Shown here one piece after another: positions 873 to 28,765 of a DNA stretch of 64,000 bases. Each line of letters opens with the position of its first letter. Position 1 is the first letter of the stretch. The stretch is from Methanobrevibacter sp. Its GTDB lineage: Archaea; Methanobacteriota; Methanobacteria; Methanobacteriales; Methanobacteriaceae. The notes below the pieces were generated by a model, which saw nothing but the letters and a program-made list of their open reading frames with translations, made no database searches and had not been told where the DNA came from. Both the position numbers and the translations under genes were made by a program. Location: contig JAFRFB010000048.1 of the NCBI GenBank assembly GCA_017434555.1, positions 11,488 through 75,487 of the forward strand, given 5' to 3'.

Positions 873-873
873 A

Positions 874-1164: not shown

Positions 1165-1255
1165 AGACTTCACCTCAATATGATTATGTTTATCATAATA
1201 TAAAAATTTGTTCGTAAACAATAAAACGAAATAAAAAATGAATAAAAAAAAGTAT

Positions 1256-1549: not shown

Positions 1550-1588
1550 ATTATCACCAAAATCTTAAAAAAAATAAAAGAAAAGGAA

Positions 1589-2455
1589 TTATAAATTCCT
1601 ATATTCTCTGATTGAAGTATAATCGTCGTCTAATTCTCCGTAAGTAGATAATTTTTCTTTGTTTGCTTCAGCATCCAAATACAAACTACCTTTACCATTA
1701 AGACCGATATCTCCAGTATATTTAATATATTTACCTGGGAAAACAACACCACTGTCTTCAGGATCTTCAACAACACCTTCAAGAACGAATCCTTCAAGTA
1801 ATCTTCCTAAAAATCCGTGAATTACAATAGTACCGTTTTTCATTTGTCCACCAGGCCAACGGTTTACATCACCATCGATTTCGATAATACCTTTGGTCAT
1901 GTGAATACCGGCTAAAATATCACAGTTTCCTTTAACGTGAATTTTACCACCAGTTAAACATTCACCACATTGTTTACCAGCGTTACCACCGACAACAATT
2001 TCTCCACCAGTCATACCTCTCCATTCACCAATGTAAGAAGCACCAGTAAATTCTTTAGTATTACCAGTGATTTCAAGGTATCCGCCAGACATTTCTCTTC
2101 CAGCGTGAGCAGCTGCGTCACCGTTAACGAGAATGGATCCACCACTCATTTCAGCACCGACGTGAAGGTCAACACTGCTGTTACAGATAATTTCACCAGC
2201 ACTCATTTTACAACCGATGTATTTGACTCTGTTTAAATCCCCGTTGAAAATCATTTTAACTTCATTAGGACCTTCAGCTTCACCTTCAACAGTAATATCA
2301 AAGAAGTCAGTAATTGGGAATCTGGAGTTTCCAATAGGTACTTCATATTTTGCGAAGTCAGCTTCAGTCCAGGAATAAATTTCATCAGGAATTACTTCAT
2401 CCATTTCTAATGCGATTGAAGAAGTTTTTATTTGATCAAATGTAATTGTTTTCAA
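1589..2455 (-). CDS. fwdC: Formylmethanofuran dehydrogenase subunit C
   Basis: GXGXG beta-helix repeats ([28 protein letters not shown]). Probable TTG start at 2455 after a GGGGTG RBS. Confidence 0.95.
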
Positions 2456-2469
2456 ACTAAACACCCCAC

Positions 2470-4179
2470 TTATTTTTCAACATCTACTCTGATTGGGTTA
2501 GATACGTAGTGGTCTTGTACTGGGTAGTTTTCCCATTTTACGGAATAGTACTGAGTGAAGAACGGCATGATGTTATCAATAACTTTTTGTTCTTGTCTTT
2601 CCCATCCTTTTACGTTAACCCAAATGTTTTGACTTTCTTTAACTTTTACAATTTCTTTATCTTTTACTAAGATTTGACCATCTTTAATAGTGTAATCAGC
2701 TACAGTGAAACCTTTTTCGATGTCTAAAGCTTGTTTGGATGGGTCAATATCATTAGGATTTATGTCATATACTGCAATATCTGCTTTGTATCCAGGAGTA
2801 AGAGCGCCTCTGTCTTCAAATCCGTAGATTTTAGCTGGAGCAGCTCTTGTAATAGTTGCAATTTCATAGAAATCGTATTCTCTTTCGATAGTTGGAAGAG
2901 TAGTTCTTTTGTAAATCCATTTGTGAACTTCGTTTTCGCACATATCTTGTCTTTTCTCATTACTCATTAACCATGAGATGATTCTAGGATATCTCATGAA
3001 AGGACCTGCATTAGGGTGGTCAGTAGTTAAACAAACTTTCCAAGGGTCGTTGATGAGTAAGAACAATTCTAAACCAATACCCCATTGTAAGGTACTAACA
3101 GGACTTTTCTTGGAGTAAATACAAGGGATGATGCCTGCAGCGGTTTCACATTCAATATCTTTGTTGGTCCATTTTAAACCAGATAATTTGAATAAGTCAT
3201 ATTCCATTGGAGCATCTGCAGTCATTGTAGTGGTTTCATCAAAGGTAACTTGACCTACGTCACAAGTAATGTGGTCATGTTTGTTAATGTAATCAGCAAC
3301 TTCCACTGCACCGGACCCTGCATCTTTCCAACTGTTACCGGTGTAGGAGTGGAATTGTAAGTGAGTAACGTGCATGACTTGGTCCCTGATAGTAGCTTTA
3401 GAACTTTTCTTAATATTTTTAACTGAGTCTAAAGTTTCAAGAGTAGTTGGTACGTTACCAGGGTGTCCTAAATCGTTAGGGTGAATGTGAATAGAGTGAG
3501 GAAGTCCTAACATTTCGTTAGCTTCAGCTAAAGCCATTACAACTTCTCTGGAGGTTACATCGAAATATGGTGCTTTATCATCATATCCGTGTACATTCAT
3601 ACCCCATCCCCATGCTTCACTTCCACATGGGTTAACAATTTTTACACCGTATCCTTTTGAGATTTTTAACCATGAAGAAATGAATGCTGCTAAATCTTCA
3701 ATATTTTTATCTTTAGCATATTCCATTACAAACCAGTTGTTACCGAATAATGGTAAAGCTGGAATATCAATGTTTGGAATAGTTGCAATTTCTTCGTGAG
3801 TGTGTTTTGCTTCAAGAGGAGGCATAGCTGCTTCTACAACAGTACCATAACCCATTCTTGAGTATCTGTAACCGGTTGTTGGACAACTTGGAATTGAGAA
3901 ACCAGATTCAGATCTTAATACTTTAGTTTTTTGGGAAACACCCATTCTTGAATCTTCTGGTCTGTATAATCTTCCTACAACTAATTTTGGACCTGCTACG
4001 TGAGCGTGTGGGTCAACACCTGCTGGCATGACGATTTTATCAGTTACGTCAATAACTTTAGCATCAGCAGAAACTTCATCGACGATAATGTCATCTTTAA
4101 ACATTACGTCTTTTTTCTCTCCGTTAATTCCATTTGCAGGATCATAAACAATACCATTTTTAAGTATATATTCCATCAT
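2470..4179 (-). CDS. fwdA: Formylmethanofuran dehydrogenase subunit A (amidohydrolase)
   Basis: [33 protein letters not shown] and [10 protein letters not shown] metal-binding motifs. Confidence 0.97.
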
Positions 4180-4186
4180 ATCACCA

Positions 4187-5572
4187 TTACATTGCTAAAT
4201 CTAAGTTTGAATTTGGTACATACTTAGGAGCTACATTTGGCTCTTCTCTGAGTTTCATTACTCTTTCTTTCAATTCACGAACAATCCATTCGTCATCACG
4301 ACAGGTTTCTGGTTTGTCGATTGCTTTTTTCATGTAGATAGGAACTCCATCCATACGATAACTGGTACCATCACATTCTACACCAATGAATGAACCTGGT
4401 AATACTACATCTGCAAGTTCAGTAGATGGTCCCCAGTGAATATCGATTTGAATAACAGGAATATCAGCTAAGTGTTGGTTTGCTCCGTTAGGGAAGTGAG
4501 CACCAGGGTCAGCTGCAATAACCATGAAACAGTCAGGTTCTTTTCTAACTAATAAATCGATAGTGTTGGTTTCACCCATCATATATCTGGTAGTACCTCT
4601 TGCGAAGTCAACACCGAATGCAAATCCAGTTTCGAATGCCATGAAAATGTTGAATCCGTTTACGTTAAAGTGACCTCTCATTGGAGTGAGACCCCATTTA
4701 CTGTATTTGTTTAAGTCTTGAACCATTTTAATAGCGATATCAATGTTTCTTTGTTTTGATAAAGTGTGAGTTAAACCTAAACCGAAGAAGAGAACACCGA
4801 ATTCTGCATTTTTCATTTCTTCAGCTAATTCATAAATATCTTCTTTAGGAATTCCAGAAATAACATCTTGGTATAATTCTTTTCCTCTTAATACAGCTCT
4901 AATTGCATTATAGAAACCATAGTCCCCATTTTGTTCAAATCCAATCCATTTGTCAGAACATTTTGCAGTATCTGAGAATTTTGGATCCATGGTAACAACA
5001 GTTCTGTCAAATCTTCCTCTTTGTCTGAAGTATCCACGACAGAATACAGCATATCTTGCCATGTGTCTTGGGTGAGAGTTCATAGCGTTACTTCCAGAGT
5101 AAGCAATCATGTCTGCTCTGTTTTGAACTTCTCCTAAAGTTTGGATAGGATAACCTGCATTTTGTACAGCTTGTAAGGAAGGACCGTGACAGATAGTAGC
5201 CTGGTTATCTAATACAGCACCGATGTATTCACCTAATGCTAAACCTTCTTTCATACATTCAGTAGAAGTTTCAGACCAACCATAGAATACTGGTCTGATG
5301 GAATTAGCAATATATTCAGCAGCTTTATCTAAAGCAGTATCCCAATCAACTTCCATAAGTTCTCCGTTTTCATCCCTAATCATTGGAACAAGTAATCTTT
5401 GGTCCATATCTTCCATGATTTTACTTGCACCAAGTCTGCATGCGTGTCTTACAGCAACGACATGACCGTCTTTGACTAAGTAATCTAAATCGTCACAGTT
5501 ACAACCACAAAATGCACAAGTACAATTTTCTACAATGTAATCGTAATCAGTTATAGGTGGTTCATAAGTCAT
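4187..5572 (-). CDS. fwdB: Formylmethanofuran dehydrogenase subunit B (W/Mo-bis-pterin, Cys ligand)
   Basis: [11 protein letters not shown] Fe-S motif, ATICHGPS active site, AMNSHPRH and MRGHFNVNG; start overlaps the fwdD stop. Confidence 0.96.
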
Positions 5573-6131
5573 GATCAATCAACTCCTCCCATTTACGTCC
5601 TTTGTAAACTGGTAATTCACCTAATGAGTCCATGTTTTCAACAACATCATCATCAGTTTCATCAACATATTTTTTGTATACCCATCTCATTAAATCAGCC
5701 ATGAGTAATACTTTTCTGTCTGTTTTTTCGACAGTACATCTAATTCCTTTGTAAGTAGGGTCAGAACAGCAGTAAGTATCGTGACTTACGACAGTGTTAG
5801 CCCAAGGTCCTTTACAAATAAATACGGTACCTTCGTGAGGTGCGTCTCTTGATACTGCACAGTTTACAACAACTTCACCGAAATCAGTTTTAACTAAAAC
5901 AGTATCCCAATTGTTTACACCTAATTTTGCCATATCTCTTGGATCCATATAACAAGTTCCGGAAGCGTTTTTATATTCTTCTTTTAAAGTAGAACCTCTT
6001 TTCTTACATGCACCTTGATAAATATCAGATCCGGTGTTTAACATACATTTGAGAACTTTTGTATTTCCTTCACCAGTAATTTTTACATCAGGTACTACAG
6101 GTTTTTCTAAATAAGTGTTAGCATAATGCAC
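5562..6131 (-). CDS. fwdD: Formylmethanofuran dehydrogenase subunit D, with terminal extensions
   Basis: [23 protein letters not shown] and PTYKG motifs. Probable GTG start at 6131 after a GGGGGA RBS. Confidence 0.93.
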
Positions 6132-6142
6132 AATAATTCCCC

Positions 6143-6373
6143 CTATTCTAACCATATAGCGTTTACTGGGCAAAACATTTGACAAGTTCCACATAATTCA
6201 CATTTATCTGGACTGAAAAGTTTAATAAACCCATTTTCTACCATGATAACTACTTCATCAGTTTTTGCACCATTTCCACCAGCATTTTCTGGACTGATAG
6301 CTGCATTAACCGGACAAGCAATTACACAGATTCCGCATCCTAAACAATTATCTTGATTTACTTTAAGTTCCAT
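6143..6373 (-). CDS. fwdG: Fwd ferredoxin subunit G
   Basis: [12 protein letters not shown] and [12 protein letters not shown]; position within the fwd operon. Confidence 0.92.
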
Positions 6374-6381
6374 CTAATCAC

Positions 6382-7479
6382 CTAGTCTTTAATTGCATTT
6401 AAAGCATCTGTCCAAGTTGCTGAATTGGTTGGAGTGTGATCAACAGCAGTTCTTTTTACAGTTATTGCACCATTAGGACATGCTTTTGCACATGCTTTAC
6501 ATTTAATACAGTAATCAGGTTGTGCAACAATGTGGTCTAATCTTGAACCTGGACCAGTTGAAACTGGGAATGCTAATGCATTACATTTACAAATATCTAC
6601 ACAAGCACCACATGCTTGACATTTTTCTTGATCGACTTCAATTGTTCCTTCAAATGGTTTTTTGGCTTTAGCTGCATCAGTTGGGCAGACACCTTCACAC
6701 CATCCACAGTAGACACAGAGTTCACTGTCAATGACTGAGTTACCTTTAACGACAGCTTTTGCTGGGTCAATATCATATTCACCATATGAACAGATTCTAC
6801 ATAAAGCTTTAATAGCGTTAGTAGGACATGCTTTTTTACATACTAAACAGTAAACACATTTATCGGTGTCAACTTCAATTGATTCTCTACCAGTTTCTTT
6901 ATCGACAACAATAGCTTCTGCAGGACATAATTCTTCACATATACCACAGTAGATACATTCATTATCGTCAATTTCGATTTCACCAGTTACTAAATCAGCA
7001 CGGTCTGGTAATGTTCTGTCAATTACAATTGCATCACGTGGACAAGCGATTTCACACTTTTTACAATATACACATTCATCATCATCGATTTCAGAAAATG
7101 CATTGTAGTGAGGGTATGCTTCGATTTCACTGATTGGTACACCATCAATAGTTAATATTAATGCGTCAACAGGACATAATCCACTGCACATACCACATAA
7201 TACACATTTGTCTTCATTAATACTAATTCTTTGAACATCAAATTCGTCATGAATGTTTTGTGCGATTTTTTCATGACCACTGAAGTAGACATTATTAGCT
7301 AATTGAACACGAGAGTCAATAGCAATCTCATTCAATGTAATTGCACCAACGGGACAAGTAGATTCACAAATTCCACATCCGATACAGACATGGTCTTTGA
7401 AAGATAAGTTTCTTACTTCCTCCGCTGACCTTGTAATGTCAAAGTTATTGTCATTAACTTCTTTCAAATTTCTTATCAT
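6382..7479 (-). CDS. fwdF: Fwd polyferredoxin subunit F
   Basis: Eight CxxCxxCxxxC motifs in 365 aa. Confidence 0.95.
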   Translation of the reverse strand: MIRNLKEVNDNNFDITRSAEEVRNLSFKDHVCIGCGICESTCPVGAITLNEIAIDSRVQLANNVYFSGHEKIAQNIHDEFDVQRISINEDKCVLCGMCSGLCPVDALILTIDGVPISEIEAYPHYNAFSEIDDDECVYCKKCEIACPRDAIVIDRTLPDRADLVTGEIEIDDNECIYCGICEELCPAEAIVVDKETGRESIEVDTDKCVYCLVCKKACPTNAIKALCRICSYGEYDIDPAKAVVKGNSVIDSELCVYCGWCEGVCPTDAAKAKKPFEGTIEVDQEKCQACGACVDICKCNALAFPVSTGPGSRLDHIVAQPDYCIKCKACAKACPNGAITVKRTAVDHTPTNSATWTDALNAIKD

Positions 7480-7931
7480 TATTTAATCTCCAAAATTTTA
7501 ATTGAATCAGTTGGGCACTCATCTTTACATAGTTCGCAACCACAACATAGTACGGAGTTTGTATGTGCTGTTAATGATTCTAACTTAATAGCTTTCATAA
7601 AACACACATTTACACATAAGCCGCAACCAATACAAGAATCTTTAATAGTTGCTTCATAGTTCTTCTCTCGGCAAATATTCACAATTTTTCGACTCTGTTC
7701 TGGTTCATCAAATACCGCATTGGTCATTATTAAAAAATCCCTGGGAGTTAATTCAGTGATAGTTCTTGCAACATCAATTGAATTCCAGGATAAGTTCCTA
7801 CCATTCAAATAATGTGATACAGTGGATCTATCAATTCCTAACTCATCAGCAATTGCCTGGTGACTTTCACCTGCTTCTTTTAATTTGACCGCAGCTAAGT
7901 ATTTTAAACCAGATGCAATATGCTTCGGCAT
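7479..7931 (-). CDS. fwdH: FwdH-type HTH plus 2x[4Fe-4S] protein
   Basis: N-terminal HTH (HQAIADELGIDRSTVSHYLNG) and C-terminal CIGCGLCVNVC and CCGCELCKDECP; first gene of the fwd operon. Confidence 0.85.
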   Translation of the reverse strand: MPKHIASGLKYLAAVKLKEAGESHQAIADELGIDRSTVSHYLNGRNLSWNSIDVARTITELTPRDFLIMTNAVFDEPEQSRKIVNICREKNYEATIKDSCIGCGLCVNVCFMKAIKLESLTAHTNSVLCCGCELCKDECPTDSIKILEIK

Positions 7932-7941
7932 TTAAACCACC

Positions 7942-7960
7942 ATGTGTAATGATTACACAT
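7942..7960. promoter_or_regulatory. Palindromic operator 1, ATGTGTAAT-G-ATTACACAT
   Basis: Perfect 9-bp arms, between the minus-strand TATA box (TTTATATA, 7970-7977) and the fwdH RBS. Confidence 0.7.
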
Positions 7961-8020
7961 ATGTTTATCTATATAAATATATTTGCCTACTAGATTAAAG
8001 TCGAAATACTTATATATAAC

Positions 8021-8037
8021 TGTGGGAATACTACACA
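8021..8037. promoter_or_regulatory. Degenerate operator 2, TGTGGGAATACTACACA
   Basis: Same TGTG-N9-CACA frame; right half (ACTACACA) identical to that of operator 3. Confidence 0.5.
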
Positions 8038-8265
8038 AAAAATTTTAAGTTAAAAAAGTACAGTAAGTATAAACATCTAATTCAAATTATAAATTATTTA
8101 TAAAATAAAATAATTAATTTAAAAAAGAATTTTAATAAATAAACCTCACTTATCAATATGTAATACTATTTATATCGAAAGATTAGATAATATTTGTAAT
8201 AAATAAAATTAAAAAAGTATTACAAAATAACCAAAAATGGGCCAAAATTTTTAGGTTGACCCAAA

Positions 8266-8284
8266 ATGTGTAGTAACTACACAT
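8266..8284. promoter_or_regulatory. Palindromic operator 3, ATGTGTAGT-A-ACTACACAT
   Basis: Perfect 9-bp arms, 57 bp upstream of the mobB ATG; 16/19 identical to operator 1. Confidence 0.7.
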
Positions 8285-8341
8285 ATGAATGTTTTAATAA
8301 TTAAAAATACATATTTATTGTATAGGATAGGGGGATTGAAA

Positions 8342-9379
8342 ATGAAAATCGTGTCGATTGTCGGGAAGAAAAATACTGGAAAAACATCACTGACTGTTAA
8401 GGTTATTTCTGAACTCACAAAAAGAGGTTATAATGTTGCTTCCATTAAACATTCTCACCATTCAATAGAAATGGATAAGGAAAATACTGATACATGGAAA
8501 CATAAAGAGGCCGGATCAAATTTGGTTGTAGGTGTTGGCTCAACAACTTTTTTCAATGTAAAAGCAGAATATGACTTAAACAGAATATTATACCTGCTGA
8601 AACACTTTGACGATTTTGATTTTGTAATCATTGAAGGCTATAAAAGTTATAATTATCCAAAAATAATTACTTCCCCCGAAGTTCGTGATGAATATACCAT
8701 AAAAGAAGTTAATTCCTTTACAATTGATGATGCGGACGTAAGCGAACTGGCTGACCTTATTGAAAAAAGAGGCCATGATATTGTTGACACTTTATTTGCA
8801 AATAACTGCGGATTCAATAATGGAGAAAGTATTGCAAAAGAAATCCGTGAAGGAAATCTAAAAGTTGAGGATTTAGATAACGTACATAGCTACCTATCAA
8901 TAGACAATAAAGTCGTGGGATTGAACAGATTTGTCAGCGACTATTTAAAACAGAACATTTTAGGCATCATCAGCACACTGAACCTTGATGACTATGGGGT
9001 TGAAGACATTAATAAAATCGAACTAGTAATACCAAATACAAAAGCAACCCCCAAAATTAATAAAAAAACAACTGTCCTAATTAATGATAAAAAACTTATG
9101 ATAAATTCATTTACATCAGACATTATAACGAATTCCATAAATGCAATGGTTAACTCGATTAAAACTGAAGATACTGTAAAAAATATAGATATAGAAATAT
9201 CCAACATTACAGGTGAAAATTTAACTGATGCAGAGATTATTTTAAAAACCAATGATAAACCTGTCGATATAAATAAATTTACATCAGGAATATTGAAAGA
9301 AACTATTTTTGCAGTTATTAACACACTAAAAATAGATGATGAAATCAATAATATAAAAATAAAAGTGGGGAGTGATTAA
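8342..9379 (+). CDS. mobB: Molybdopterin-guanine dinucleotide biosynthesis protein MobB with repeated C-terminal domains
   Basis: VGKKNTGKT P-loop, IKHSHH and IIEGYK motifs. Start at ATG 8342 after a GGGGG RBS. Confidence 0.92.
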   Translation: MKIVSIVGKKNTGKTSLTVKVISELTKRGYNVASIKHSHHSIEMDKENTDTWKHKEAGSNLVVGVGSTTFFNVKAEYDLNRILYLLKHFDDFDFVIIEGYKSYNYPKIITSPEVRDEYTIKEVNSFTIDDADVSELADLIEKRGHDIVDTLFANNCGFNNGESIAKEIREGNLKVEDLDNVHSYLSIDNKVVGLNRFVSDYLKQNILGIISTLNLDDYGVEDINKIELVIPNTKATPKINKKTTVLINDKKLMINSFTSDIITNSINAMVNSIKTEDTVKNIDIEISNITGENLTDAEIILKTNDKPVDINKFTSGILKETIFAVINTLKIDDEINNIKIKVGSD

Positions 9380-10312
9380 ATGGCGGAGGAATTTGTGAAA
9401 GATAAATTCGAAAGACCTATAGTATCACTCAGAATCACTATTACCAATAGATGTAATGAAAATTGCATATATTGTCATCATGACGGAATGGTATCTTCAA
9501 AAGATGAAATGACTCCTGACGAAATATATACGATATGTAAAATAGCCAAAAAATTAGGGGTTAAAAAAATCAGGCTTTCCGGTGGAGATCCATTAGTTCG
9601 AAAAGACATTGTGGAAATCGTTGAAAAGATAGGCAGCCTGAATTTCAAAGATATTTCACTTACAACAAATGGTGTGCTACTTGAAAAATATGCTAAAGAT
9701 TTAAAAGAAGCTGGTTTGAGTAGGGTTAATGTCAGTTTAGATACTTTAAACCGTGACACATACAAATTCGTTACAAATATGGATTATTTAAATGAAGCGA
9801 AAGCAGGAATCCTGAAAGCTGTTGAAGTCGGACTTTATCCGGTTAAGATTAACATGGTAATCATGAAAGACATAAACGAACATGAAATAAAAGACATGTT
9901 TAACTTCTGTAAGGACAACAATATGGTCCTTCAATTAATAGAATTGATTGAAAGTGAAAACTGTGATGATGATAAATTCTCAGCTGAATACCATTACACC
10001 TTAGATAAGGTTGAAGAAAGATTGGCTGATATAGCTGATGATGTAAAAGAACGTAAATTTATGCAGGGCCGTCGTAAATATTACATTAACGGTGGAGAAA
10101 TCGAGGTAGTCAAACCTATGGACAACTCTAAATTTTGCGCAAATTGTACCAGATTGAGGGTAACGCCGGACGGTAAAATCAAACCCTGCCTGCTTAGAAA
10201 TGACAACCTTGTAGAACTAATATCATACATCAGAAATAATGAAAGTGATGAAAAATTAGAAGAAATCTTTTTAAAAGGTATTGATAAAAGAGAACCTTTC
10301 AATACTGATTAA
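9380..10312 (+). CDS. moaA: GTP 3',8-cyclase MoaA
   Basis: [27 protein letters not shown] and [20 protein letters not shown]. Confidence 0.96.
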
Positions 10313-10399
10313 AAAAATATTTTTTATTCTTTTGTAAATATTATATAATACTAGTTTTTTAAAAAAATAAGAAAAATAAATAAAGCAAAAATGCTTTAT

Positions 10400-11608
10400 C
10401 TATAATTTTTTAGCTTTTGAAATGTGTTCGGTGAATGGGATTCTGTCGTCAGTGTCGAATCCAGGGATGTATCCGTAAACATCTCTTACTTTGTTGTTTA
10501 CAGTACTCCATACTTTGGATACAGGAATTTCACAAGGACAGACATCACTACATTGACCACAGTTGGTACATGCATCAACCATGTGAACCATACGGGTTAA
10601 GTGGAAGAATGGTGCTGCAGGAGTGTATCCACCAGGTACCCATTCAGGACCTTCAGCTTCAAGACAGCAGTCTTCACAGAAACATAATGGACATGCTTCA
10701 CGACAACCGTAACATTTCATACATTTGGAGAATTCTTCATCGTACATATGGAATACATCGATGATATCTCCGGTAGTACCAGCATAGTCTACTTCTTTTT
10801 TAGCGTTAGAAGCTTTGAGCATGAAGTTGTTGATGTTTTCTCTGATTTTGATACCTTTTTCGATTGGTTCAGCAACTTCAATTAAACCTGCGTCAATTAC
10901 ATCTGCTAAGATTTCAGAACCTTTGTCAGTGAATACTTCTACGAAAGTAGCTTTACCAGCTAATTCACCGATAACTCCCCAGTTACCTAATGCTAAGTCA
11001 GCATTGGATGGGATTTTTAAACTGCATCTTTGACAGTTTTCTCTTCTACCCATACCGTCTTCTTCTAAGTCTTCGATACCGAATCCTTTTTCTTCACCGT
11101 CAGCAGTTTCCATGATGAGTTTACCTTTAGAGATTTCTTCTTTAACAACATCTTTAGGGTCTAATTCATAGACTTCTTTAATCATGTTCATGGTTGGTAC
11201 AGGTGGTAATGTTCCTCCACAGTTTACACCGATCATGATGATGTTATCACCGATGATTTTTCCTCTTTTGATTAATTCTCTAATGGTCATTGCATCACAT
11301 GGTTTACATGAGACTGCAACTTTCATGTCTCTGCATCCGTCTAAGTATTTGTAAACGAATTTAGCTAAGTTTAAAGTACCACAGTGAATTGAACCAGCGG
11401 TTTTAATAATGTCTTCAGGTTCGGTTACTAAACATGGTACTGCGTCATATAAATCATGACCTTCTTCTACTCCAACAACTGCATCAACAGTTCCGCTTTC
11501 TAATAAGTATTTCATGATGGTAGTTACAACTCCACCATATTCACCTTTAGCTTTGATGTCGTCGTTAGCAGAGTAAGCATAATACATTTTTTCAATATTT
11601 GCGCTCAT
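10400..11608 (-). CDS. fdhB: F420-dependent formate dehydrogenase beta subunit
   Basis: [24 protein letters not shown] and [10 protein letters not shown]; [12 protein letters not shown] and [12 protein letters not shown]. Confidence 0.95.
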
Positions 11609-13866: not shown

Positions 13867-14658
13867 TTAATCTTTAAGATAAGTGTACCAGTATATACAA
13901 GCTACGAATACAGCTCCACCAACAATGTTTCCTAAAGTTACAGGAACTAAGTTGTTAATAATCATTGTAGACCAGGTTACACCTTCAGCACCTAAGAATA
14001 AACCTAATGGTATGAAGAACATGTTTGCAACACTGTGCTCAAATCCGATGGTAACGAAAGCCATAATTGGGAACCAGATACCAACGATTTTACCAATGAT
14101 ATCATCAGATGCATTAGCTAACCATACAGCTAAACATACAAGCCAGTTACAACCAATTGCTTTAATAAACGCTTGGGCAAATGGCATTTTGACTTTTGCA
14201 GCAGCCACAGCAGTTGCTTTGGTTGCAAATGCTGAATCAGCTGGGAATAAACCTCCCATGTAAGCAAGAACGAATGCAACAAATAAAGCACCGACAAAGT
14301 TGAATAACCAACTTAATACCCAATTTTTTGCAAGTCCGCCTACAGATGCAGAACCGTCTAATACACCGATGGTCATAAACATTACGTTACCGGTGAATAA
14401 CTCGGATCCTGCGAGAACTACAATAATCAAACCTACAGGGAACACTGCACCGAATACGAATTTTTCTAATCCGACAGGTGCTCCTGCAGCTAACATTCCT
14501 GCACTAGCGATTTCAGCTAGTAATCCTCCGAATGCGATATAAGCTCCTGCTAAAAAGGAGAGTAAAATCACATTTACAATATTTGCTGAGTTTTTAGCTC
14601 CAGCAGTTGCAGATATTGCTTTTGCAGTATCTACTGGACTTTTAAAAGATGAACTCAT
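13867..14658 (-). CDS. fdhC: Formate channel (FNT family)
   Basis: [32 protein letters not shown] and [10 protein letters not shown]. Confidence 0.95.
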
Positions 14659-14944
14659 AATCTCAACCTCTTTTTATCCCCTTATAAATTAATTTATAGT
14701 ATAATACATATGAATCTGCCAAACAGTATAATCCATTGTATTATGATTATTATATATAGTCATTATATAATAAAAAGGCTTTGTTATTAGAACGTAAAAG
14801 AAAATTTTAAATACTATTAAAAGAATAAATAAAAAGTTAATGATAAATCATGATAGATAGTTGTTCACATCGATTCATTTTTATAAACTCTGTTTGAATG
14901 TTACGAATAAAATAATAAAAAAACAAATAAAAAAATAGTTTGAA

Positions 14945-15244
14945 TTAACCCGATACCATTACTAATTCGCCCGTATTAGGATCCTCATAGACTTTTCCAA
15001 CTTCATTAAAGCCACTATCTTCAATTCCGCCGGCATCAGAATAAGTCTGATTGAATGTATCAGCCGTTGAAACATCTTGAGTGTTCGGTGAATTTGAAAT
15101 TAACTCGGGATTTGCAGATAAAGCCATAATAGCAAAAATTAAGAATCCTAAAGCTAAAACCAACATCGCATCTGAAAGATTGGTTAGACCAGACATTGGG
15201 TCATCATCGATGGAATCACTGATTCTTCGTTTTTTTCTAAGCAT
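14945..15244 (-). CDS. DUF2149 / ExbD-HmuV-like single-pass membrane protein
   Basis: DDPMSGLTNLSDAMLVLALG (Asp in the TM segment, like ExbD IDVMLVL) and C-terminal GKVYEDPNTGELVMV. Confidence 0.8.
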   Translation of the reverse strand: MLRKKRRISDSIDDDPMSGLTNLSDAMLVLALGFLIFAIMALSANPELISNSPNTQDVSTADTFNQTYSDAGGIEDSGFNEVGKVYEDPNTGELVMVSG

Positions 15245-15250
15245 AAATTA

Positions 15251-15895
15251 TCACTTCTGATTGTTCAATGATTCGAGTTCAACCTCAGCTAAAGTTTCAA
15301 CTTCAATTAAATCTGATTCATACCACTGTTTTTTAAATTTAGAAATCAGATAACCGACACCACCAACAGCAAGCCCAGTAACAGTAGTATCAAAAGCTAT
15401 AGTTAACGATTCCGCAAGAGTTGTTATATCACCACTGCCCAAAGCTGCAAGACCTGGCCCTAAAGGAATTAATGTGCCTAAAAGACCTAAAATAGGACCT
15501 AACCTGACTAGTATATCGGTTTTATTAGTACTCTTAATTAATCTGGTTTCTTCACTGGAAACTAACTCACTGGCCAAGGCTTCTCTTGCTTTTGTACCGA
15601 TATCATGATTTTCTGCAATTTTTACAAGAACATCCTTTTGCCAATCAAACAAATTACTGTTATTTACATAGTCTTCAATTTCAGATGGAGAATCGGAAAA
15701 TGAAATATCACGGACTAATTTTTCAAATTCGTCAGGTTTGATAGGTTTTCTTGAAAACCTTTCATTAATCATTCCTCCAAGACATAAAATGACTAAAACT
15801 ACAAAAATTACCAAGATTATAACAACAGGAGTTAATAAACTCTCTGAAATTATATGAATTAATGAAGTTAAAGTTTCTGTACCTCGAATTATCAT
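15251..15895 (-). CDS. MotA/TolQ/ExbB proton-channel family protein (HmuU-like)
   Basis: RLGPILGLLGTLIPLGPGLAAL and LAESLTIAFDTTVTGL. Confidence 0.9.
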   Translation of the reverse strand: MIIRGTETLTSLIHIISESLLTPVVIILVIFVVLVILCLGGMINERFSRKPIKPDEFEKLVRDISFSDSPSEIEDYVNNSNLFDWQKDVLVKIAENHDIGTKAREALASELVSSEETRLIKSTNKTDILVRLGPILGLLGTLIPLGPGLAALGSGDITTLAESLTIAFDTTVTGLAVGGVGYLISKFKKQWYESDLIEVETLAEVELESLNNQK

Positions 15896-15898
15896 AAA

Positions 15899-16543
15899 CT
15901 ACCTCAAATTTTTTTTATCATTCCAATAAGATCCAATAATTAAAACAATGACAATTCCTATTATAACATATATTAGCTGATATGTTGGAGTTAATATTAA
16001 AAATGATGAAAACATTTTATAATCCAAATTCATAATAGAAACATAGGTTAAACCAAAAATAAAAATTAAAATTCCTGATAAAGACATGAACTCCCCAATT
16101 ATAACATCATAGGGGCGCTTCGCAAAAATTAATAATTTAGAAGATTGAAATGCCACAATCATTACAATTATTGAAACAACAGATAACAATAAGCCATTAA
16201 ATACATATTCATTCAATTGTGAAGCCAATAAAAATGATGTTATATAATATAATAATATAGTGGCTGAAATTACCGGCATTAATTTGATGTTAATCTTCAG
16301 ATAAACAATCATTATAATAAATATTATTATAGAGATTAAAATGAAAATATATGCCAGATAATCACCTAAACTAAAAGTCAATAGGCTTGAAGTGAAAACC
16401 ACAATAAATAAGATTATTCCTATCAACATAAATATCAGGCTACTTTTTATGTTATTTAATCTGAAATTACCGAAAAAAAGACCAATATTTGCTGAAAATA
16501 AAATTGTGGTAATTAATAAATAACTAAAAATCAAATCAAACAT
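15899..16543 (-). CDS. Polytopic membrane protein, DUF2162/HmuT-like
   Basis: About 7 hydrophobic segments with IIGEFMSLSG motif; only 3 bp from the ExbB-like gene. Family inferred from context. Confidence 0.55.
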   Translation of the reverse strand: MFDLIFSYLLITTILFSANIGLFFGNFRLNNIKSSLIFMLIGIILFIVVFTSSLLTFSLGDYLAYIFILISIIIFIIMIVYLKINIKLMPVISATILLYYITSFLLASQLNEYVFNGLLLSVVSIIVMIVAFQSSKLLIFAKRPYDVIIGEFMSLSGILIFIFGLTYVSIMNLDYKMFSSFLILTPTYQLIYVIIGIVIVLIIGSYWNDKKNLR

Positions 16544-16635
16544 ATTTATAGCTCATTAAATTATTATAATAAGTAATATAACAATATAAATATATAAACA
16601 TATCGTTAATTAAAAAAAGAAAAATGAAACAGACT

Positions 16636-18456
16636 TTATTGTCCATTTCTTTTGTTTAACATGAATTTTACATCATCCCTATAATATAAGCCAATTACAC
16701 AAAGGATTAATGCCAAAATAAAACCTATTCCAGCTATTCTAACAACTTCTTCATCAATATTCAAAGATTTAGCAACTGATTTTTTTGGAGTTGAATCAGA
16801 TGCTGATTGCTGTGCATTATCACTTGATACCGCTTGAGAAGCTGACTGGCCAGAACTTTCAGCACTTTGGGAAGATGCCTGTTCAACAGCATTATTAGAA
16901 TTAGCGACATTTGCCGGATTCTGGCTTTGAGGAGATCCGGAATTTTGATTTGTGGAAGTTCCATTTCCTTCAATCTGTTCTGAATTGCCATTTGTTCCAT
17001 TACTTGTGCTAGATGAAGAATCATCATCTTTAGTCGGAACATCCGGAACTACAGGAACATCCGGAGTAACAGGAGCAGGCGGGACATAATCTTTCATCTG
17101 ATATTCATAATTGTTATTGCTTTCAAAATAATCAAACACAAGATTTCCATCAGCATTTGCAACATTTATAGTAGCTTTTCCATCAGTTAATGTAGCATAT
17201 TGCCAATTGCGGCCACCATTTGTTGAATACCTGAGTAATGAATCGGTTTTTATTCCATCAACGCTAACGGATAATGTATTGGAGTCCAATTGATTTACAT
17301 TCATGTGATATTTTTTAAATTTGACTTTTTCACAAACACCATTAAATCTAGGATTATCAGAGGCAATCCAGTTAGTATTCAGTTCAATGTTCATGTAAAT
17401 ACTGTCTCTTGCTAAAACGTTAAAGTCCTTATTGTAAACAATGGAATTATTACCAATGTTCAATACACCGGAATCATAGGATTTACGGTAATTTTCACCG
17501 AAATAAATACCATTTCCATTATTGCGCTGAATAGTATTATATTCAATGTTTAAATCATCATCTCCAGCCATATCAATGAAAATACCGTTTTCATTTCTCT
17601 CCAAAGTATTTCCTAACACGTTTGAATGTAATCCTGATTTAGCAAAACTGATAGCATCATTTTCAGATTTTGAAATATAATTTGAAATAATTTGAGTATC
17701 CAAAACGTTTTCGTCAAGATAAATTCCATTATAATTATTTAAAAGATTGTTTGCTGAAATATTTGCATTATTTGAATTTTTTAAATAAATTCCATTATAA
17801 TTATTAACAATATCATTAAAAGAAACTTCAACATTATTGGAATTTTCTATGGCAATACCGTCTGATCCTCCGGAAATAACCAGGTTGGAAATCTTAACAT
17901 CATCTGACTTTACAGTTATGACTGGAGATTTGGAATTTCCATTAAAAACTGACTTTACAATACTGATGATGTTTAGTGATTTTTCTACGTTAACAGCTAC
18001 ATCATTATATGTGCTTCCCGCAAAAATCAGAGTATCACCAGAATTTGCATCATCAATGATTTTTTGGATATCATTTCCGGATAAATTATCTTTAATCAGC
18101 GTTCCCTCATTATGTGAAACATATATCGTATTGTTGTTAATCAGTTTTTGATTGTTTGAATCCACATATGCTGTAGAAATTGGATAAATACCATCTTCAA
18201 GATTAATATTCAAAAATGCAAAACCATTCAGGTCAGTTAATCTCGTATAATTAATTCCATTTACTGAAAAAATTATCGTTTGATTAATCAGCGGATTATT
18301 ATCAGCTGATTTGAGTGATGCGTTGTATTCAAGATTATCTCCAAGTAAATCCGCATCCGAAGTATTCAATACGACATTGGAAACATCAGTCAAATTATCC
18401 TCAGCACTGACAACATTGATTGAAACAATAATCATCAAAAGCGAAATTAAAATCAT
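16636..18456 (-). CDS. Membrane-anchored surface protein (Ig-like + right-handed beta-helix + Pro/Ser linker + C-terminal TM)
   Basis: Signal peptide, TFSVNGINYTRLTD ALP repeat, parallel beta-helix repeats, VPPAPVTPDVPVVPDVP, Ser/Asn/Gln linker and TM IAGIGFILALILCVIGLYY. Confidence 0.85.
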   Translation of the reverse strand: MILISLLMIIVSINVVSAEDNLTDVSNVVLNTSDADLLGDNLEYNASLKSADNNPLINQTIIFSVNGINYTRLTDLNGFAFLNINLEDGIYPISTAYVDSNNQKLINNNTIYVSHNEGTLIKDNLSGNDIQKIIDDANSGDTLIFAGSTYNDVAVNVEKSLNIISIVKSVFNGNSKSPVITVKSDDVKISNLVISGGSDGIAIENSNNVEVSFNDIVNNYNGIYLKNSNNANISANNLLNNYNGIYLDENVLDTQIISNYISKSENDAISFAKSGLHSNVLGNTLERNENGIFIDMAGDDDLNIEYNTIQRNNGNGIYFGENYRKSYDSGVLNIGNNSIVYNKDFNVLARDSIYMNIELNTNWIASDNPRFNGVCEKVKFKKYHMNVNQLDSNTLSVSVDGIKTDSLLRYSTNGGRNWQYATLTDGKATINVANADGNLVFDYFESNNNYEYQMKDYVPPAPVTPDVPVVPDVPTKDDDSSSSTSNGTNGNSEQIEGNGTSTNQNSGSPQSQNPANVANSNNAVEQASSQSAESSGQSASQAVSSDNAQQSASDSTPKKSVAKSLNIDEEVVRIAGIGFILALILCVIGLYYRDDVKFMLNKRNGQ

Positions 18457-25168: not shown

Positions 25169-25738
25169 TTATTCATCGATTACTTCGTAGTAAGCCCCTT
25201 CAACACAAGGCCTGCATGCAGGCTTACCATCAACCATCAAATGACGGCCGTCAGTTACCTTATCGCCACAAATGGAACAGATTTCAGTGTTGTGTGGTTT
25301 ACCAGGCATTTGTGCTTCAGTTAATTCAACTTTAACTTTTTGCACATCAAACAGCTCTTCAGGAGGAGTGGTTTTAAACCTTTCAATCATTTCCTCACGG
25401 GTTTCTTTTTTCTTATCTTTTCTGTTAGCGTCAGCATCGATGATTCTTAAAGCTTCACCGGTATCCATATTATAGAATGTTGCTGCAAATTTACCGTAAT
25501 AAGCCTGTTTAAGTGAACGTTTACCCATTGAACATTTTGTAACTGCCTGAACAGCATCAGCCATACATCTGTCAATTTCCAAAATAACAATCAGGTTTTT
25601 ATGACGCGTGTTCAATTCCATGCCCATCAATTCCAAACCGTACATTGCGAGTTTAGTACCGATAGCTATTCCTCCACAGATTTCACCGTGGAATTCACCG
25701 GCCATTTTTAACTGTTCTTCATAATCTTTCTGATTCAT
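25169..25738 (-). CDS. fmdE: FmdE-family protein with C-terminal C4 zinc finger
   Basis: FHGEICGGIAIG, EIDRCMADAVQ and GKFAATF; CSICGDKV...ACRPC. Confidence 0.85.
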   Translation of the reverse strand: MNQKDYEEQLKMAGEFHGEICGGIAIGTKLAMYGLELMGMELNTRHKNLIVILEIDRCMADAVQAVTKCSMGKRSLKQAYYGKFAATFYNMDTGEALRIIDADANRKDKKKETREEMIERFKTTPPEELFDVQKVKVELTEAQMPGKPHNTEICSICGDKVTDGRHLMVDGKPACRPCVEGAYYEVIDE

Positions 25739-26529
25739 TTAATATCACCTAATTTTAAATTTGTTTTTAAAGGAACACAAACTTTCCTATTATCGTCAAT
25801 ATTTATTAATTTAACATCTATTGAATAAGCTTTTCTAAGGTTTTCCTCTGTTACCACATCATCAGGCTTTCCAAAATCTATAAATGATTTGTCTTTCATT
25901 ATAGCTACTTTCGTAGAGCTTAGAAATGCATGATCCGGAAAATGTGATGACATTATAATGGATAAACCTGATTTAGCCAGGTTATCAATTATTTCCAAAA
26001 GTTTTATCTGGTTTCCAAAATCCAGATGTGATGTCGGCTCATCCAAAATCAGTATATCCGGCTGCTGACACAATATTCTTGCCAGAAATACAAGCTGACG
26101 CTCACCGCCGCTTAAGTTAGTATACTCCTTATCCTTCAAATCCTCTATTCCCAAAGTTTTCAGGGCATTTAATGCAATTTCCTCATCTTCCTTTTTGGGA
26201 GTGTCTGTCAGATTCAAATAAGGAGCCCTTCCCATCAGTACAACGTCAAATACGGAAAATGGAAATGTGGGAATATGTGACTGCGGAATATAACCTATAT
26301 GTCTTGATATTTGAGCAAATGACAGGTCTTTAATATCCTTTCCGTCAATCAGTATTTCGCCGGAATCGATTTCATGAATCCTGTTAAGACATTTAATCAG
26401 CGTAGTTTTTCCGGTACCGTTGGGTCCGAGTATACATAATACATCCCCTTTATCAACCGAAAAACTGATATTGTCGAATATTAATTCATCATCATAGGAA
26501 AATGAAATGTTTTTAACGTCTAAGACCAT
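25735..26529 (-). CDS. FecE/BtuD-type ABC transporter ATPase
   Basis: GPNGTGKT, LSGGERQ, LDEPTSHLD and SSHFPDHA. Confidence 0.95.
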   Translation of the reverse strand: MVLDVKNISFSYDDELIFDNISFSVDKGDVLCILGPNGTGKTTLIKCLNRIHEIDSGEILIDGKDIKDLSFAQISRHIGYIPQSHIPTFPFSVFDVVLMGRAPYLNLTDTPKKEDEEIALNALKTLGIEDLKDKEYTNLSGGERQLVFLARILCQQPDILILDEPTSHLDFGNQIKLLEIIDNLAKSGLSIIMSSHFPDHAFLSSTKVAIMKDKSFIDFGKPDDVVTEENLRKAYSIDVKLINIDDNRKVCVPLKTNLKLGDIK

Positions 26530-27533
26530 TCTGAATACCCCCTTCTAAGCAAATAAAGGAAAATCGGAACACCTATGACTGCAGTCAATATGCCTATTGG
26601 AATTTCAATTGAAATCACGACTCTTGAAATGTTGTCAATCAACAGTAAAAAACTAGCACCGAGACTTAAGGATGCCGGAAGCAATACCTTGTTATCCGGT
26701 CCTACAATCATTCTTGCCATATGGGGAATAATCATACCGATCCATCCGATGATACCGCTTATGGATACTGCAGCAGAAGTCAATAATGTACATGCTGCAA
26801 TAATGATTAATCTGACTCTTGAAGGGTTTAAACCTAAGGACTGTGCTTCCTCATCACCCATGGCCAGTATGTTCATCTGCCATCTGAGCAAATAAAGGAT
26901 AATGAAACCTATAAACAAAGGAATGATAATCATGATTATTTCATTCATTGTGACGGATGCCAGACTTCCCATTAACCAGTATACGATTTCCGGCAGTTTG
27001 TCTTCAGGGTCTGCTATGAACTTTATTCCGGAAATCAGTGAGTTGAAAAATGCTGAAATTGCAACTCCTGAAAGTACCAAAATCAAAATTCCGCCGGCTT
27101 TATATGCCTTTGAAATCAGATAGGTTATTGAAACAGATATGATACCGAAAACAAAAGCGAAAAGTTGAATGACAACACTGGAACCGCTTAATAAAATAGC
27201 TAAAGCCGCCCCGAATCCTGCACCGTTTGATACGCCCAAAAGGTCTGAAGATACCAGCGGGTTTTTAAATATTCCCTGAAATGCCGTACCTGCCATTGCA
27301 AGTGAAGCTCCCACTAAAAGAGCCGCTAAAATTCTTGGAAGCCTGATTTGCCAAACAATAGTATTGACAGTGGATGAAACAGTTAACTGTGGGAAAAGCG
27401 GACTTAAAATCGTTTTGACTACATCAACAGGACTGATCGGATATCTTCCCATTAAAAAGGATGCGAAAAAAAGAATTATAGGTAAAAATACCAAAAGTAC
27501 CAGACTTATAATTTCTTTATTTTCCTTATCCAT
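26520..27533 (-). CDS. FecCD/BtuC-type ABC permease
   Basis: IRLPRILAA, FQGIFKNPLVS, GDEEAQSLGL and IGWIGMIIPHMAR. Confidence 0.95.
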   Translation of the reverse strand: MDKENKEIISLVLLVFLPIILFFASFLMGRYPISPVDVVKTILSPLFPQLTVSSTVNTIVWQIRLPRILAALLVGASLAMAGTAFQGIFKNPLVSSDLLGVSNGAGFGAALAILLSGSSVVIQLFAFVFGIISVSITYLISKAYKAGGILILVLSGVAISAFFNSLISGIKFIADPEDKLPEIVYWLMGSLASVTMNEIIMIIIPLFIGFIILYLLRWQMNILAMGDEEAQSLGLNPSRVRLIIIAACTLLTSAAVSISGIIGWIGMIIPHMARMIVGPDNKVLLPASLSLGASFLLLIDNISRVVISIEIPIGILTAVIGVPIFLYLLRRGYSEWS

Positions 27534-27542
27534 AAAATCATC

Positions 27543-28643
27543 CTAGAAATTCTCTTCTTTAAGGCCTGAATCTAGCAAGATCTGTTTTGCCTGTTCGTCT
27601 GATAAATCGAAGTGGTAGAAGTTTGAGTAAAACTCTTTTGTTGCACTTAACATGTCAATATCAGAATATTGGTCAGGATATATTACTTTTGCAGTCCAAG
27701 GAACACCGATAATCATATTTGCACCGACAGGTCTGTCAAACCATTTAAATGGAGACTGCGGTGATAAATACACTTCATGATTTTTAACTGCATTAATGCC
27801 TGCCCAGTTTGAATCGTTATAGACTTTTGCATAAAAATCAGGGTCAGTTGTAATGATAACATCCGGATTCCAGCTGATAACCTGTTCTATTGATACCTGA
27901 ACACCGCTGGTTGTATTTCCCTGACTTAATGAGTCAGCAACATTATTTCCTCCGACCAAATCAATCAGCTGTCCGTGAACAGAACCTGACGGGTTAGTTT
28001 TTAAACCGTCATTTCCTTCCGCATAATAAACGTTTTTCTTATCTGTTATTTGAGGGGATTTCTTGTGAACAATGTCCAAATACTTATCATTGAAATCCGT
28101 CAATTTTTTGGCATTGTCCTGTGCACCGATAACCTCGCCGATAAATGTAATGGATGCGTCAACTTTTTCAACGCTTGTAGTATCGTTTACTGCCACAACA
28201 GGAATTTTACCGAATTTTGTTTGTCTTTCATTGACTGTGGATAAATCTCCGTCGCCTCCCTCATCAATAGACTCTATAACAATGTCCGGTTCTGATGCTA
28301 TAAACTCCTCATAACTTCCGTCCTGAGTTCCATACCATCCGCCGATGTTTGGCAATCCCTGGTACTGTGAAGGAACATAAACCTTTTCACTATCGGTCCA
28401 CTCAAAATTCAGGGCAGTTAATTTTTCCGGAGCAATCATATAAACTACTGTAGTCATCGGAGGGGAAGTGGCAACAACTTTATTAAGTGAAGCGGGTATT
28501 TCAACAGCCCTGCCAATCATGTCTGTGATATTTTTAGCTCCTGAATTTTCAACAGTTAAAGGAGTTAAAAATAAATGAGTTGCAACCCCCGATACAATCA
28601 AAAGAGCTAAAATTAAAATAATAATTTTACTTTTCTTTTCCAT
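27543..28643 (-). CDS. Iron/siderophore/corrinoid-class (helical backbone) ABC substrate-binding protein
   Basis: N-terminal TM anchor, ITDMIGRAVEIP, EQVISWNPDVI and AVKNHEVY. Start set at ATG 28643. Confidence 0.9.
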   Translation of the reverse strand: MEKKSKIIILILALLIVSGVATHLFLTPLTVENSGAKNITDMIGRAVEIPASLNKVVATSPPMTTVVYMIAPEKLTALNFEWTDSEKVYVPSQYQGLPNIGGWYGTQDGSYEEFIASEPDIVIESIDEGGDGDLSTVNERQTKFGKIPVVAVNDTTSVEKVDASITFIGEVIGAQDNAKKLTDFNDKYLDIVHKKSPQITDKKNVYYAEGNDGLKTNPSGSVHGQLIDLVGGNNVADSLSQGNTTSGVQVSIEQVISWNPDVIITTDPDFYAKVYNDSNWAGINAVKNHEVYLSPQSPFKWFDRPVGANMIIGVPWTAKVIYPDQYSDIDMLSATKEFYSNFYHFDLSDEQAKQILLDSGLKEENF

Positions 28644-28765
28644 ATCAACCACATTATAACCTTTGATATGAATATTTATTCTCAACATATTAAATAATTT
28701 ACTAAATAGCTAAATTTAATTGAAATGAGAAAAATAATATATTATTGATAACAGGAGTTATAACT

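Follow-up and report, generated by a model that had tools for sequence, protein, structure and literature searches.

A probable HmuTUV-type ion-motive-force module and its anchored beta-helix neighbour in Methanobrevibacter

Gene content of the locus

A stretch of 64,000 nt from Methanobrevibacter sp. (contig JAFRFB010000048.1 of assembly GCA_017434555.1), referred to here as the window and numbered throughout from its first letter, carries three minus-strand genes that encode a DUF2162-like protein, an ExbB-like protein and a DUF2149 protein (Table 1). The trio is very probably an ion-motive-force module of the HmuTUV type, composed of an ExbB-fold channel and a transmembrane (TM) helix with a conserved Asp. 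The genes follow one another closely, with gaps of 3 bp (DUF2162-like/ExbB-like) and 6 bp (ExbB-like/DUF2149), as had been noted in an earlier reading of the letters alone (the original prediction). The ExbB-like gene has a counterpart of 100% identity on a contig of a Methanobrevibacter sp. metagenome-assembled genome. Its naming of the trio as an hmuTUV gene set also held, since PF01618 and PF09919 were matched, while DUF2162 was reached through orthologues only; the host is likewise a wall-bearing archaeon without an outer membrane, as it had stated.

The gene order in this lineage is a beta-helix protein, DUF2162, ExbB-like and DUF2149, followed after a gap of about 300 bp by fdhC-fdhA-fdhB. 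The beta-helix gene just upstream of the trio is treated below as its candidate partner. An operon for an importer and FmdE, comprising a PBP2 substrate-binding protein, a FecCD-type permease, an ATP-binding cassette (ABC) ATPase and FmdE, lies 8.6 kb upstream of the trio on the same strand, with three adhesin-like genes between.

Table 1. Features of the trio locus and of the neighbouring genes discussed in the text (window numbering; aa, amino acids)
Feature	Coordinates	Strand	Size	Basis or remark
DUF2162-like gene	16543..15899	minus	214 aa	putative divergent HmuT-like protein
ExbB-like gene	15895..15251	minus	214 aa	HmuU-like by its fold model
DUF2149 gene	15244..14945	minus	99 aa	putative HmuV-like protein
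Partner (candidate effector), beta-helix gene	18456..16636	minus	606 aa	Pfam and position
Spacer between partner and DUF2162-like gene	16544..16635	minus	92 bp	oligo-T run, then TTTATATA-like box
Oligo-T tract	14903..14944	minus		directly after the DUF2149 stop codon; parts the trio from fdhCAB
Substrate-binding protein (PBP2)	28688..27543	minus	381 aa	Pfam
FecCD-type permease	27533..26520	minus		Pfam
ABC ATPase	26529..25735	minus		Pfam
FmdE with zinc ribbon	25738..25169	minus		Pfam
fdhC	13867-14658			formate transporter
MobB-domain protein	8285-9379		364 aa	MobB domain at residues 22-129

The ExbB-like and DUF2149 proteins

Conservation was followed in 86 loci (80 at one genome per species, five from assemblies and the window), whose open reading frames (ORFs) were called heuristically, clustered and annotated with Pfam.

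The ExbB-like protein matches Pfam MotA_ExbB (PF01618) with an E-value of 3e-9 and 37.1 bits against a cut-off of 22.9. Its AlphaFold model (pLDDT, predicted local distance difference test, 96) has an ExbB/TolQ-type fold of three TM helices with long cytoplasmic helices, and the best Foldseek matches of the model are E. coli ExbB (5zfp, 5sv0 and 6tyi; TM-score 0.64-0.69 over 205-216 columns), followed by TolQ and MotA. A profile of the subfamily matched MotA (3e-4), ExbB (2e-3) and TolQ (0.016) in the PDB. The family keeps the motif GLxGTLIPLGPG...AFDTT, with T141, G137 and P144 invariant in 86/86 loci. The threonines that the original prediction had pointed out in the last helix (IAFDTTVTG) are present: for the pore-lining threonines of TM2 and TM3, Thr141 (86/86) aligns with Thr148 of E. 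coli ExbB and Thr171 (78/86) with Thr181. Glu176 of E. coli ExbB is not kept; Ile stands in its place, and a near-invariant Asp169 lies two residues ahead of Thr171. Only 1,047 full-length relatives (E <= 1e-3) were found among 1.84 billion cluster representatives, so the group forms a distinct subfamily that does not merge into the bulk of ExbB, TolQ and MotA. Going by the model, the gene product is a channel subunit of the ExbB/TolQ fold, resembling HmuU.

The DUF2149 protein matches Pfam DUF2149 (PF09919) with an E-value of 8.8e-11 and 42 bits (cut-off 27). It has a basic N-terminus (MLRKKRR), an N-in single TM helix that bears Asp25, and an outside segment of about 55 residues that ends in the conserved motif G-x-V-Y-x-D-P-x-T-G. 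Conservation of the TM Asp in NLSDAMLVL had been set as a test of the original prediction; the motif is there, and Asp25 is invariant in 86/86 archaeal and bacterial sequences, as are M27, L28, V29, G33, G83, V85, D88 and G92. The DUF2149 gene lies directly 3' of the ExbB-like gene in every one of the 86 loci, an arrangement far beyond chance, and in 18 of them it overlaps the 3' end of that gene, as seen in a six-frame hidden Markov model search. The product is thus placed as HmuV-like on sequence and position.

Placement of DUF2149 in the ExbD family by sequence was tried and rejected: its profile matched no ExbD, TolR or MotB chain in the PDB, and just 3 of 31 DUF2149 members match PF02472, all weakly (best E 0.014). 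DUF2149 is a separate family, ExbD-like by position and key residue only. Both this result and the gene content bear on the reading of the trio as a classical system, that is, a Ton or Tol complex, a flagellar or archaellar stator, or a Zorya-like defence motor, with which it shares membership of the MotA/ExbB family only. The Pfam scan took in 38 proteins of the window, leaving aside small ORFs and a few mid-sized ones at 45.4-55.4 kb, and found among them no TonB, TolA, receptor or peptidoglycan-binding MotB-type protein, and the archaeal loci of the survey likewise showed no TonB and no TonB-dependent outer-membrane transporter; the statement of the original prediction that no tonB, receptor or cobN is adjacent thus stood. 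Methanobacteriales have no outer membrane and archaella are driven by ATP, and PADLOC returned no defence system, Zorya or other, for the four proteins of the trio and partner. The classical reading is effectively refuted, and describing the trio as an archaeal Ton-like system, as had been done, overstates its membership.

The DUF2162-like protein

The third member is the most divergent. Its own match to Pfam DUF2162 (PF09930) is not significant (E 6.4, 6.6 bits), but orthologues of 46-64% identity match the family over their full length (E about 1e-7, 31.8-32.6 bits, cut-off 34.4) and one orthologue cluster was already annotated as PF09930. The assignment is therefore by transitivity only, and the protein may be regarded as a divergent HmuT-like DUF2162. 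The NCBI label of the family is 'peptide ABC transporter permease', which no result obtained here backs. The AlphaFold model (pLDDT 84) has seven TM helices, and a Foldseek search with it gave no significant match to a PDB fold and no transporter fold (best E 0.7).

A Cys-rich TM motif (APCPCCFG or LPCPFC) is present in the DUF2162 forms linked to CobN, in the CbiM-linked forms of Methanosphaera and in those of Firmicutes, and it looks like the CPC motif of metal translocation. In the alignment, the window protein and its Methanobrevibacter orthologues have a deletion at the CPC(C) segment.

[quoted passage not shown] The trio could be a transporter in its own right: a metal ion, a tetrapyrrole or some other solute would pass through DUF2162 as the permease, with the ExbB-like/DUF2149 pair providing only the ion coupling, and the beta-helix gene would be incidental. 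The seven helices of the model and the resemblance of the Cys-rich motif of CobN-associated forms to a metal-translocation site agree with such a role, as do the surveyed loci (type b) in which the trio has no anchored partner. Against it, the window protein has lost the motif and matches no transporter fold, and about 20 of the 86 loci have no DUF2162 at all; 17 of these were readable, and in 15 of them the ExbB-like gene is abutted upstream by an Ig-like protein with a C-terminal anchor instead. We also know of no ExbB-family member that energises a co-encoded permease, and we consider an autonomous transporter unlikely.

The upstream anchored partner

The gene upstream of the trio encodes an N-terminal signal peptide, a NosD/right-handed beta-helix domain, a linker rich in Pro and in Ser/Gln/Asn, and a single C-terminal TM anchor (...IAGIGFILALILCVIGLYYRDDVKFMLNKRNGQ). 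Pfam NosD and Beta_helix were matched with E-values of 4e-12 and 6e-9, the NCBIfam NosD model scored 34 bits against a cut-off of 300, and no PDB structure was matched by sequence. The protein had earlier been listed merely as a TM protein; the C-terminal TM helix is indeed present, but its place as a conserved partner in the HmuS position had been missed.

Length and spacing are typical of the lineage, in which a protein of about 620 aa is followed by a gap of about 93 bp. The top 18 BLAST matches of the partner are all genes in the same position and are full-length down to 29% identity. A model of its last 70 residues also finds the partners of Methanobacterium (E 1.7e-12 to 5e-4), and in a metagenome search with the anchor motif DUF2162 lay about 90-100 bp downstream in 17 of 19 loci, with ExbB-like and DUF2149 genes following wherever the contig continues. 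All of these loci are orthologous, so the counts show conservation and not independent events. No C-terminal TM helix is present in either of the other two adhesin-like proteins of the window. Taken together, the sequence comparisons identify the gene as a conserved orthologous partner, in the place taken by the CobN-like HmuS in Bacteroidota. The anchor modules of the beta-helix partners and of the CobN or DUF11 partners were also compared for homology, which was rejected (E > 0.7, not significant); what they share is architecture only.

Three further observations concern the partner and its module. The partner anchor (…IGLYYRDD…) and the last helix of DUF2162 (…IIGSYWNDKK…) end alike, a weak similarity (E 0.03-3) that recurs across loci, and both may dock at the same place on the motor. 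In two metagenome loci found through the anchor motif, L097 (2300-2686) and L103, the partner is kept and either DUF2162 is truncated to 128 aa or no trio follows, hence the motor seems dispensable in some strains. In a rumen Methanobrevibacter metagenome-assembled genome (MAG; L044, about 9142-10900), DUF2162 is split into 87 and 77 aa, the ExbB-like ORF is reduced to 162 aa and DUF2149 is broken into two pieces, so that the module looks decayed.

The partner is an adhesin-like beta-helix protein and diverges fast, with 29-37% identity across a range where the ExbB-like protein keeps 70-75%. This raises the prospect of an envelope machine, in which the motor would move, expose, tension or insert an anchored adhesin-like protein in the pseudomurein wall with no role in nutrition, analogous to Tol-Pal or to the GldLM/SprB gliding system. 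Expression in M. ruminantium M1 is in line with this: the membrane-active lauric acid induces the ExbB-like gene mru_0329 (log2 1.56) together with the flanking adhesin-like genes mru_0326, mru_0327 and mru_0331 (log2 5.0, 1.7 and 1.15, respectively) (PMC5816558). The same treatment induced 26 adhesin-like genes overall (PMC5816558), so the co-induction is not specific to the locus. The recurrence of FecCD-type importers, FmdE, CbiM and CobN beside the module across archaea and Firmicutes points to metals rather than to the envelope, and a purely structural machine appears quite improbable.

Neighbourhoods in related genomes

In the surveyed loci, the gene just upstream of ExbB, or of DUF2162-ExbB, combines a signal peptide with a C-terminal TM anchor in 32 of 70 cases, as against 21 of 720 among the remaining genes there. 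The partners have mutually unrelated outside domains and include NosD/beta-helix proteins, a 1784-aa PQQ/PKD/NosD protein, CobN-like proteins (1414-2133 aa) and DUF11, Big_2 and Big_5 proteins. The idea of the original prediction that the motor serves ligand capture or surface-protein handling fits this conserved anchored gene in its general form, though not as a Ton-like system. The module is found in many archaea and Firmicutes, and since these have a single membrane it cannot energise an outer-membrane receptor there.

The importer of the window had been overlooked in the earlier reading. The operon PBP2-FecCD-ABC-FmdE directly adjoins the trio in about 25 loci of Methanobrevibacter and Methanobacterium. 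In about 20 Methanobrevibacter species outside the lineage of the window it is followed by the trio after about 210 bp, and in Methanobacterium the order is partner or partners, trio, then PBP2-FecCD-ABC-FmdE. The importer operon is thus probably associated with the trio. In several Firmicutes, FecCD-ABC-PBP2 is followed by an anchored Ig-like protein, the ExbB-like and DUF2149 genes and a small secreted protein with an Oxidored_molyb domain.

Among the solved relatives of the window permease, the best is HI1471 MolB (7.5e-69, 235 bits), compared with 152-176 bits for BtuC, HmuU and FhuB. The binding protein matches 4pag and 4ovk, two unliganded structural-genomics entries that score above MolA, then HI_1472 MolA (1.7e-22), and BtuF at 3e-5. 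MolBC-A is a molybdate importer (PMC4031551), and homologues of FmdE mostly adjoin metal transporters (PMC2954224). Further genes linked to molybdenum and tungsten (Mo/W) stand elsewhere in the region of the window: fwd/fmd, mobB, moaA, fdhD and fdhCAB. From these matches, the operon may encode an archaeal importer of the MolBC type for Mo/W.

A different metal context for the same motor is seen in Methanosphaera (L059 and L061, about 4500-11000), where a 1018-1056-aa FmdE-domain protein, a TM protein, CbiM and a 161-aa anchored protein precede the trio, in that order, within one operon; CbiM is the S-component of a Co/Ni energy-coupling factor transporter. The Firmicute-type loci L060, L062, L071 and L084 have a secreted protein of 163-180 aa immediately 3' of the pair, and in L074 it is nearby. 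The Oxidored_molyb domain, a fold that binds the molybdenum cofactor, was present in the downstream secreted member that was scanned and also in a 1882-aa protein of L062.

CobN-like genes adjoin the trio in 7 of the 86 loci, Methanobacteriaceae included, and their products carry a signal peptide and a C-terminal anchor; no surveyed Methanobrevibacter locus has an adjacent CobN. The earlier expectation that methanogen copies usually sit by cobN was therefore not borne out for this subfamily. The seven loci nonetheless suggest that the trio might be an accessory of a chelatase or dechelatase of the CobN-like HmuS type whose gene lies elsewhere in the genome, in which case the local gene order would be uninformative. 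Methanothermobacter, also of the Methanobacteriales, carries several cobN homologues whose role is unassigned (PMC3087415, PMC12583661). In the window, however, a different conserved anchored protein fills the HmuS slot, the DUF2162 of the window has no Cys motif of the kind typical of CobN-linked forms, and no CobN-like protein was found among the scanned proteins of the window. CobN was also considered for the large ORFs of the window and rejected, as these are adhesin-like proteins (Chlam_PMP, Big), PolD and NrdD. An accessory of a distant chelatase is, on this evidence, very unlikely.

Some taxonomic labels of the surveyed loci are to be read with care. L013, labelled Bacteroidaceae, has full Methanobrevibacter synteny and 76% identity and is probably an archaeal contig mis-binned into a bacterial MAG, and the labels of L071 (Bacteroidaceae) and L055 (Actinomycetota) also look doubtful. 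With regard to the Mo/W genes of the window, the MobB-domain protein is unusually long, and its C-terminal extension has two similar segments (…NKFTS.I…IN…).

Transcription and regulation

The oligo-T run and TATA-like box in the spacer between the partner and the DUF2162-like gene make their co-transcription uncertain, and it is possible that the trio has a promoter of its own there; in this AT-rich genome, such motifs also occur by chance. The oligo-T tract that follows the DUF2149 gene is likely an archaeal terminator, and a promoter-like AT-rich region is read in the sequence 5' of fdhC.

In four gut or rumen metatranscriptome assemblies, RNA contigs of fdhC stop at about 14658-14853. Their depth in the two deepest runs is about 290-3,900, at least 100-fold above anything over the trio. 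The trio and partner were not assembled in these data except for one patch of about 18x, and contigs cannot prove the absence of a transcript. Co-transcription of the trio with fdhCAB was considered and rejected in view of the oligo-T tract, the promoter-like region and the ending of the fdhC contigs before the trio; fdhCAB is thus a separate and far more highly expressed unit. The fdhC transcript is among the most deeply assembled of the organism in gut and rumen metatranscriptomes, where its several sequence variants indicate co-existing strains. A search for riboswitches gave no Rfam match in the window, and eight Firmicute loci yielded just a tRNA.

Comparison with known systems

The closest known system is hmuYRSTUV of Bacteroidota (P. 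gingivalis PG1554-1556; B. thetaiotaomicron), whose HmuT-HmuU-HmuV belong to the same families in the same order of DUF2162-like, MotA/TolQ/ExbB and DUF2149. HmuS resembles the partner in the window in that it combines a signal peptide with a C-terminal TM helix, and its gene lies 5' of hmuTUV (PMC13227078, PMC12583661). Unlike the hmu operon, the window has no HmuY haemophore, no HmuR TonB-dependent receptor and no CobN-like HmuS among the scanned proteins; a NosD/beta-helix protein precedes the trio instead, the host is a single-membrane archaeon, and DUF2162 is without the Cys-rich motif. The associated transporter also differs, being MolBC-like here and FeoB in Bacteroidota.

ExbB-ExbD of the Ton system and TolQ-TolR share with the pair the ExbB/TolQ fold over the whole length, the threonines of TM2 and TM3 and a tight gene coupling. 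As in ExbD and TolR, the N-in single TM helix of DUF2149 bears an essential-looking Asp in a D-x-M-L-V-L context. The differences are the lack of TonB and TolA among the scanned proteins and of an outer membrane in the host, the additional seven-TM subunit, and the outside segment of DUF2149, which is short next to the folded periplasmic domain of about 80-100 or more residues in ExbD, TolR and MotB (in MotB and TolR one that binds peptidoglycan).

MolBC-A of Haemophilus influenzae (HI1470/HI1471/HI1472), a type II importer of molybdate and tungstate, includes the closest solved relative of the window permease and is close to the binding protein, whereas the archaeal operon adds FmdE and in relatives its gene order joins the motor trio.

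An analogy can be drawn with NosD/NosFY, in which an extracytoplasmic beta-helix protein is served by a membrane energy-transducing complex for the handling of a metal centre during nitrous oxide reductase maturation. In the window, a beta-helix protein would similarly be served mechanically by such a complex, but the motor would be ion-driven and ExbB-like instead of an ABC ATPase, and there are no nos genes.

HmuT, HmuU and HmuV have been treated as uncharacterised in the literature, and archaeal homologues of CobN have been noted as unexplained (PMC12094164, PMC13227078 and PMC12583661 for the former; PMC12583661 for the latter). In the literature searched, DUF2162 is never mentioned and the archaeal trio is not discussed. 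Since the gene families themselves already have names and annotations, the locus does not represent a new category of system. Its novel aspects are a conserved anchored partner that stands where HmuS would be, the association with FmdE and a MolBC-like importer, and the argument, drawn from single-membrane hosts, that the motor does not energise a receptor.

Proposed mechanism and its weighing

The reading that we favour is that the ion-driven motor acts, with DUF2162, on an anchored extracytoplasmic effector for the acquisition of metal together with the MolBC-like importer and FmdE. We give it a little short of an even chance, with the substrate and the coupling as its conjectural parts. Behind it stand the family membership and fold, the invariant residues, the obligate pairing of the ExbB-like and DUF2149 genes, the conserved anchored partner, the recurring metal-uptake neighbours and the occurrence of the module in organisms with one membrane; the joint induction of mru_0329 and its flanking adhesin-like genes in M. 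ruminantium (PMC5816558) also speaks for it. In the proposed mechanism, the ExbB-fold protein would form a ring, presumably a pentamer, around the single TM helices of a presumed DUF2149 dimer, in a presumed 5:2 stoichiometry. The invariant Asp25 of DUF2149 would be the ion-binding site, and a postulated ion flow would drive motion of the ExbB-like ring relative to DUF2149. In a host with neither an outer membrane nor TonB or a flagellum, the work is proposed to pass within the cytoplasmic membrane, where it would be relayed by a putative physical contact to the seven-TM DUF2162-like subunit and the C-terminal anchor of the partner. The motor would then force a conformational change in the 606-aa beta-helix effector, allowing capture or release of a tightly bound or scarce metal at the surface, and the metal would be handed to the nearby type II importer of the MolBC-A kind with FmdE. 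The best guess for the substrate in this lineage is molybdenum or tungsten.

Several points weigh against this reading. The link between the motor and the beta-helix protein is conjectural, and adhesin-like beta-helix genes are very abundant in Methanobrevibacter. Many Methanobrevibacter loci (the type b loci mentioned above) have no anchored partner beside the trio, and the similarity of the anchor region is significant within Methanobacteriaceae only and does not extend to the CobN and DUF11 partners. In the window itself, the oligo-T run and TATA-like box split the partner from the trio, so the two may be separate transcripts, and the absence of the trio from gut metatranscriptome contigs means that it is poorly expressed or merely unobserved. 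As for metals, DUF2162 of the window is without the Cys-rich motif of the CobN-associated forms, a metal-related neighbour was found within the DNA fetched in just 49 of the 86 loci, and similarity to MolA and MolB is no proof of an oxyanion substrate, with all NCBIfam matches of the importer below their cut-offs. The survey loci were moreover selected for their similarity to the query and fall into phylogenetic clusters, hence they are not independent.

A broader form of the favoured reading is more speculative, and we think that it may well not hold. It takes the pair, with or without DUF2162, as a widespread TonB-independent force generator for outside proteins tethered by a C-terminal TM helix, used in Methanobacteriaceae for the scavenging of Mo/W or another scarce metal. 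If true, it would span archaea and Firmicutes and, by extension, HmuS of Bacteroidota, and such a generator would stand in for ATP-driven helpers, to which proteins outside the cell have no access. With its beta-helix effector, the system of Methanobacteriaceae would then supply formate dehydrogenase and formylmethanofuran dehydrogenase with Mo/W or another scarce metal scavenged across the pseudomurein wall.

Implications

The following implications are drawn from comparative genomics and carry the same conditional force. In the hmu field, HmuT, HmuU and HmuV are usually drawn as energisers of HmuR or as an inner-membrane haem transporter. That the trio is common in single-membrane hosts, where it is paired with a C-terminally anchored outside protein or stands beside metal importers, speaks for an action of the motor on the anchored protein, and so on HmuS as well. 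With regard to archaea, the reading, if true, would mean that ion-motive force can be transmitted to a surface protein without an outer membrane. For the methanogens of the rumen and gut, it points to a dedicated route for trace metal, possibly Mo/W, that would feed formate and CO2 reduction and may therefore be relevant to methane mitigation.

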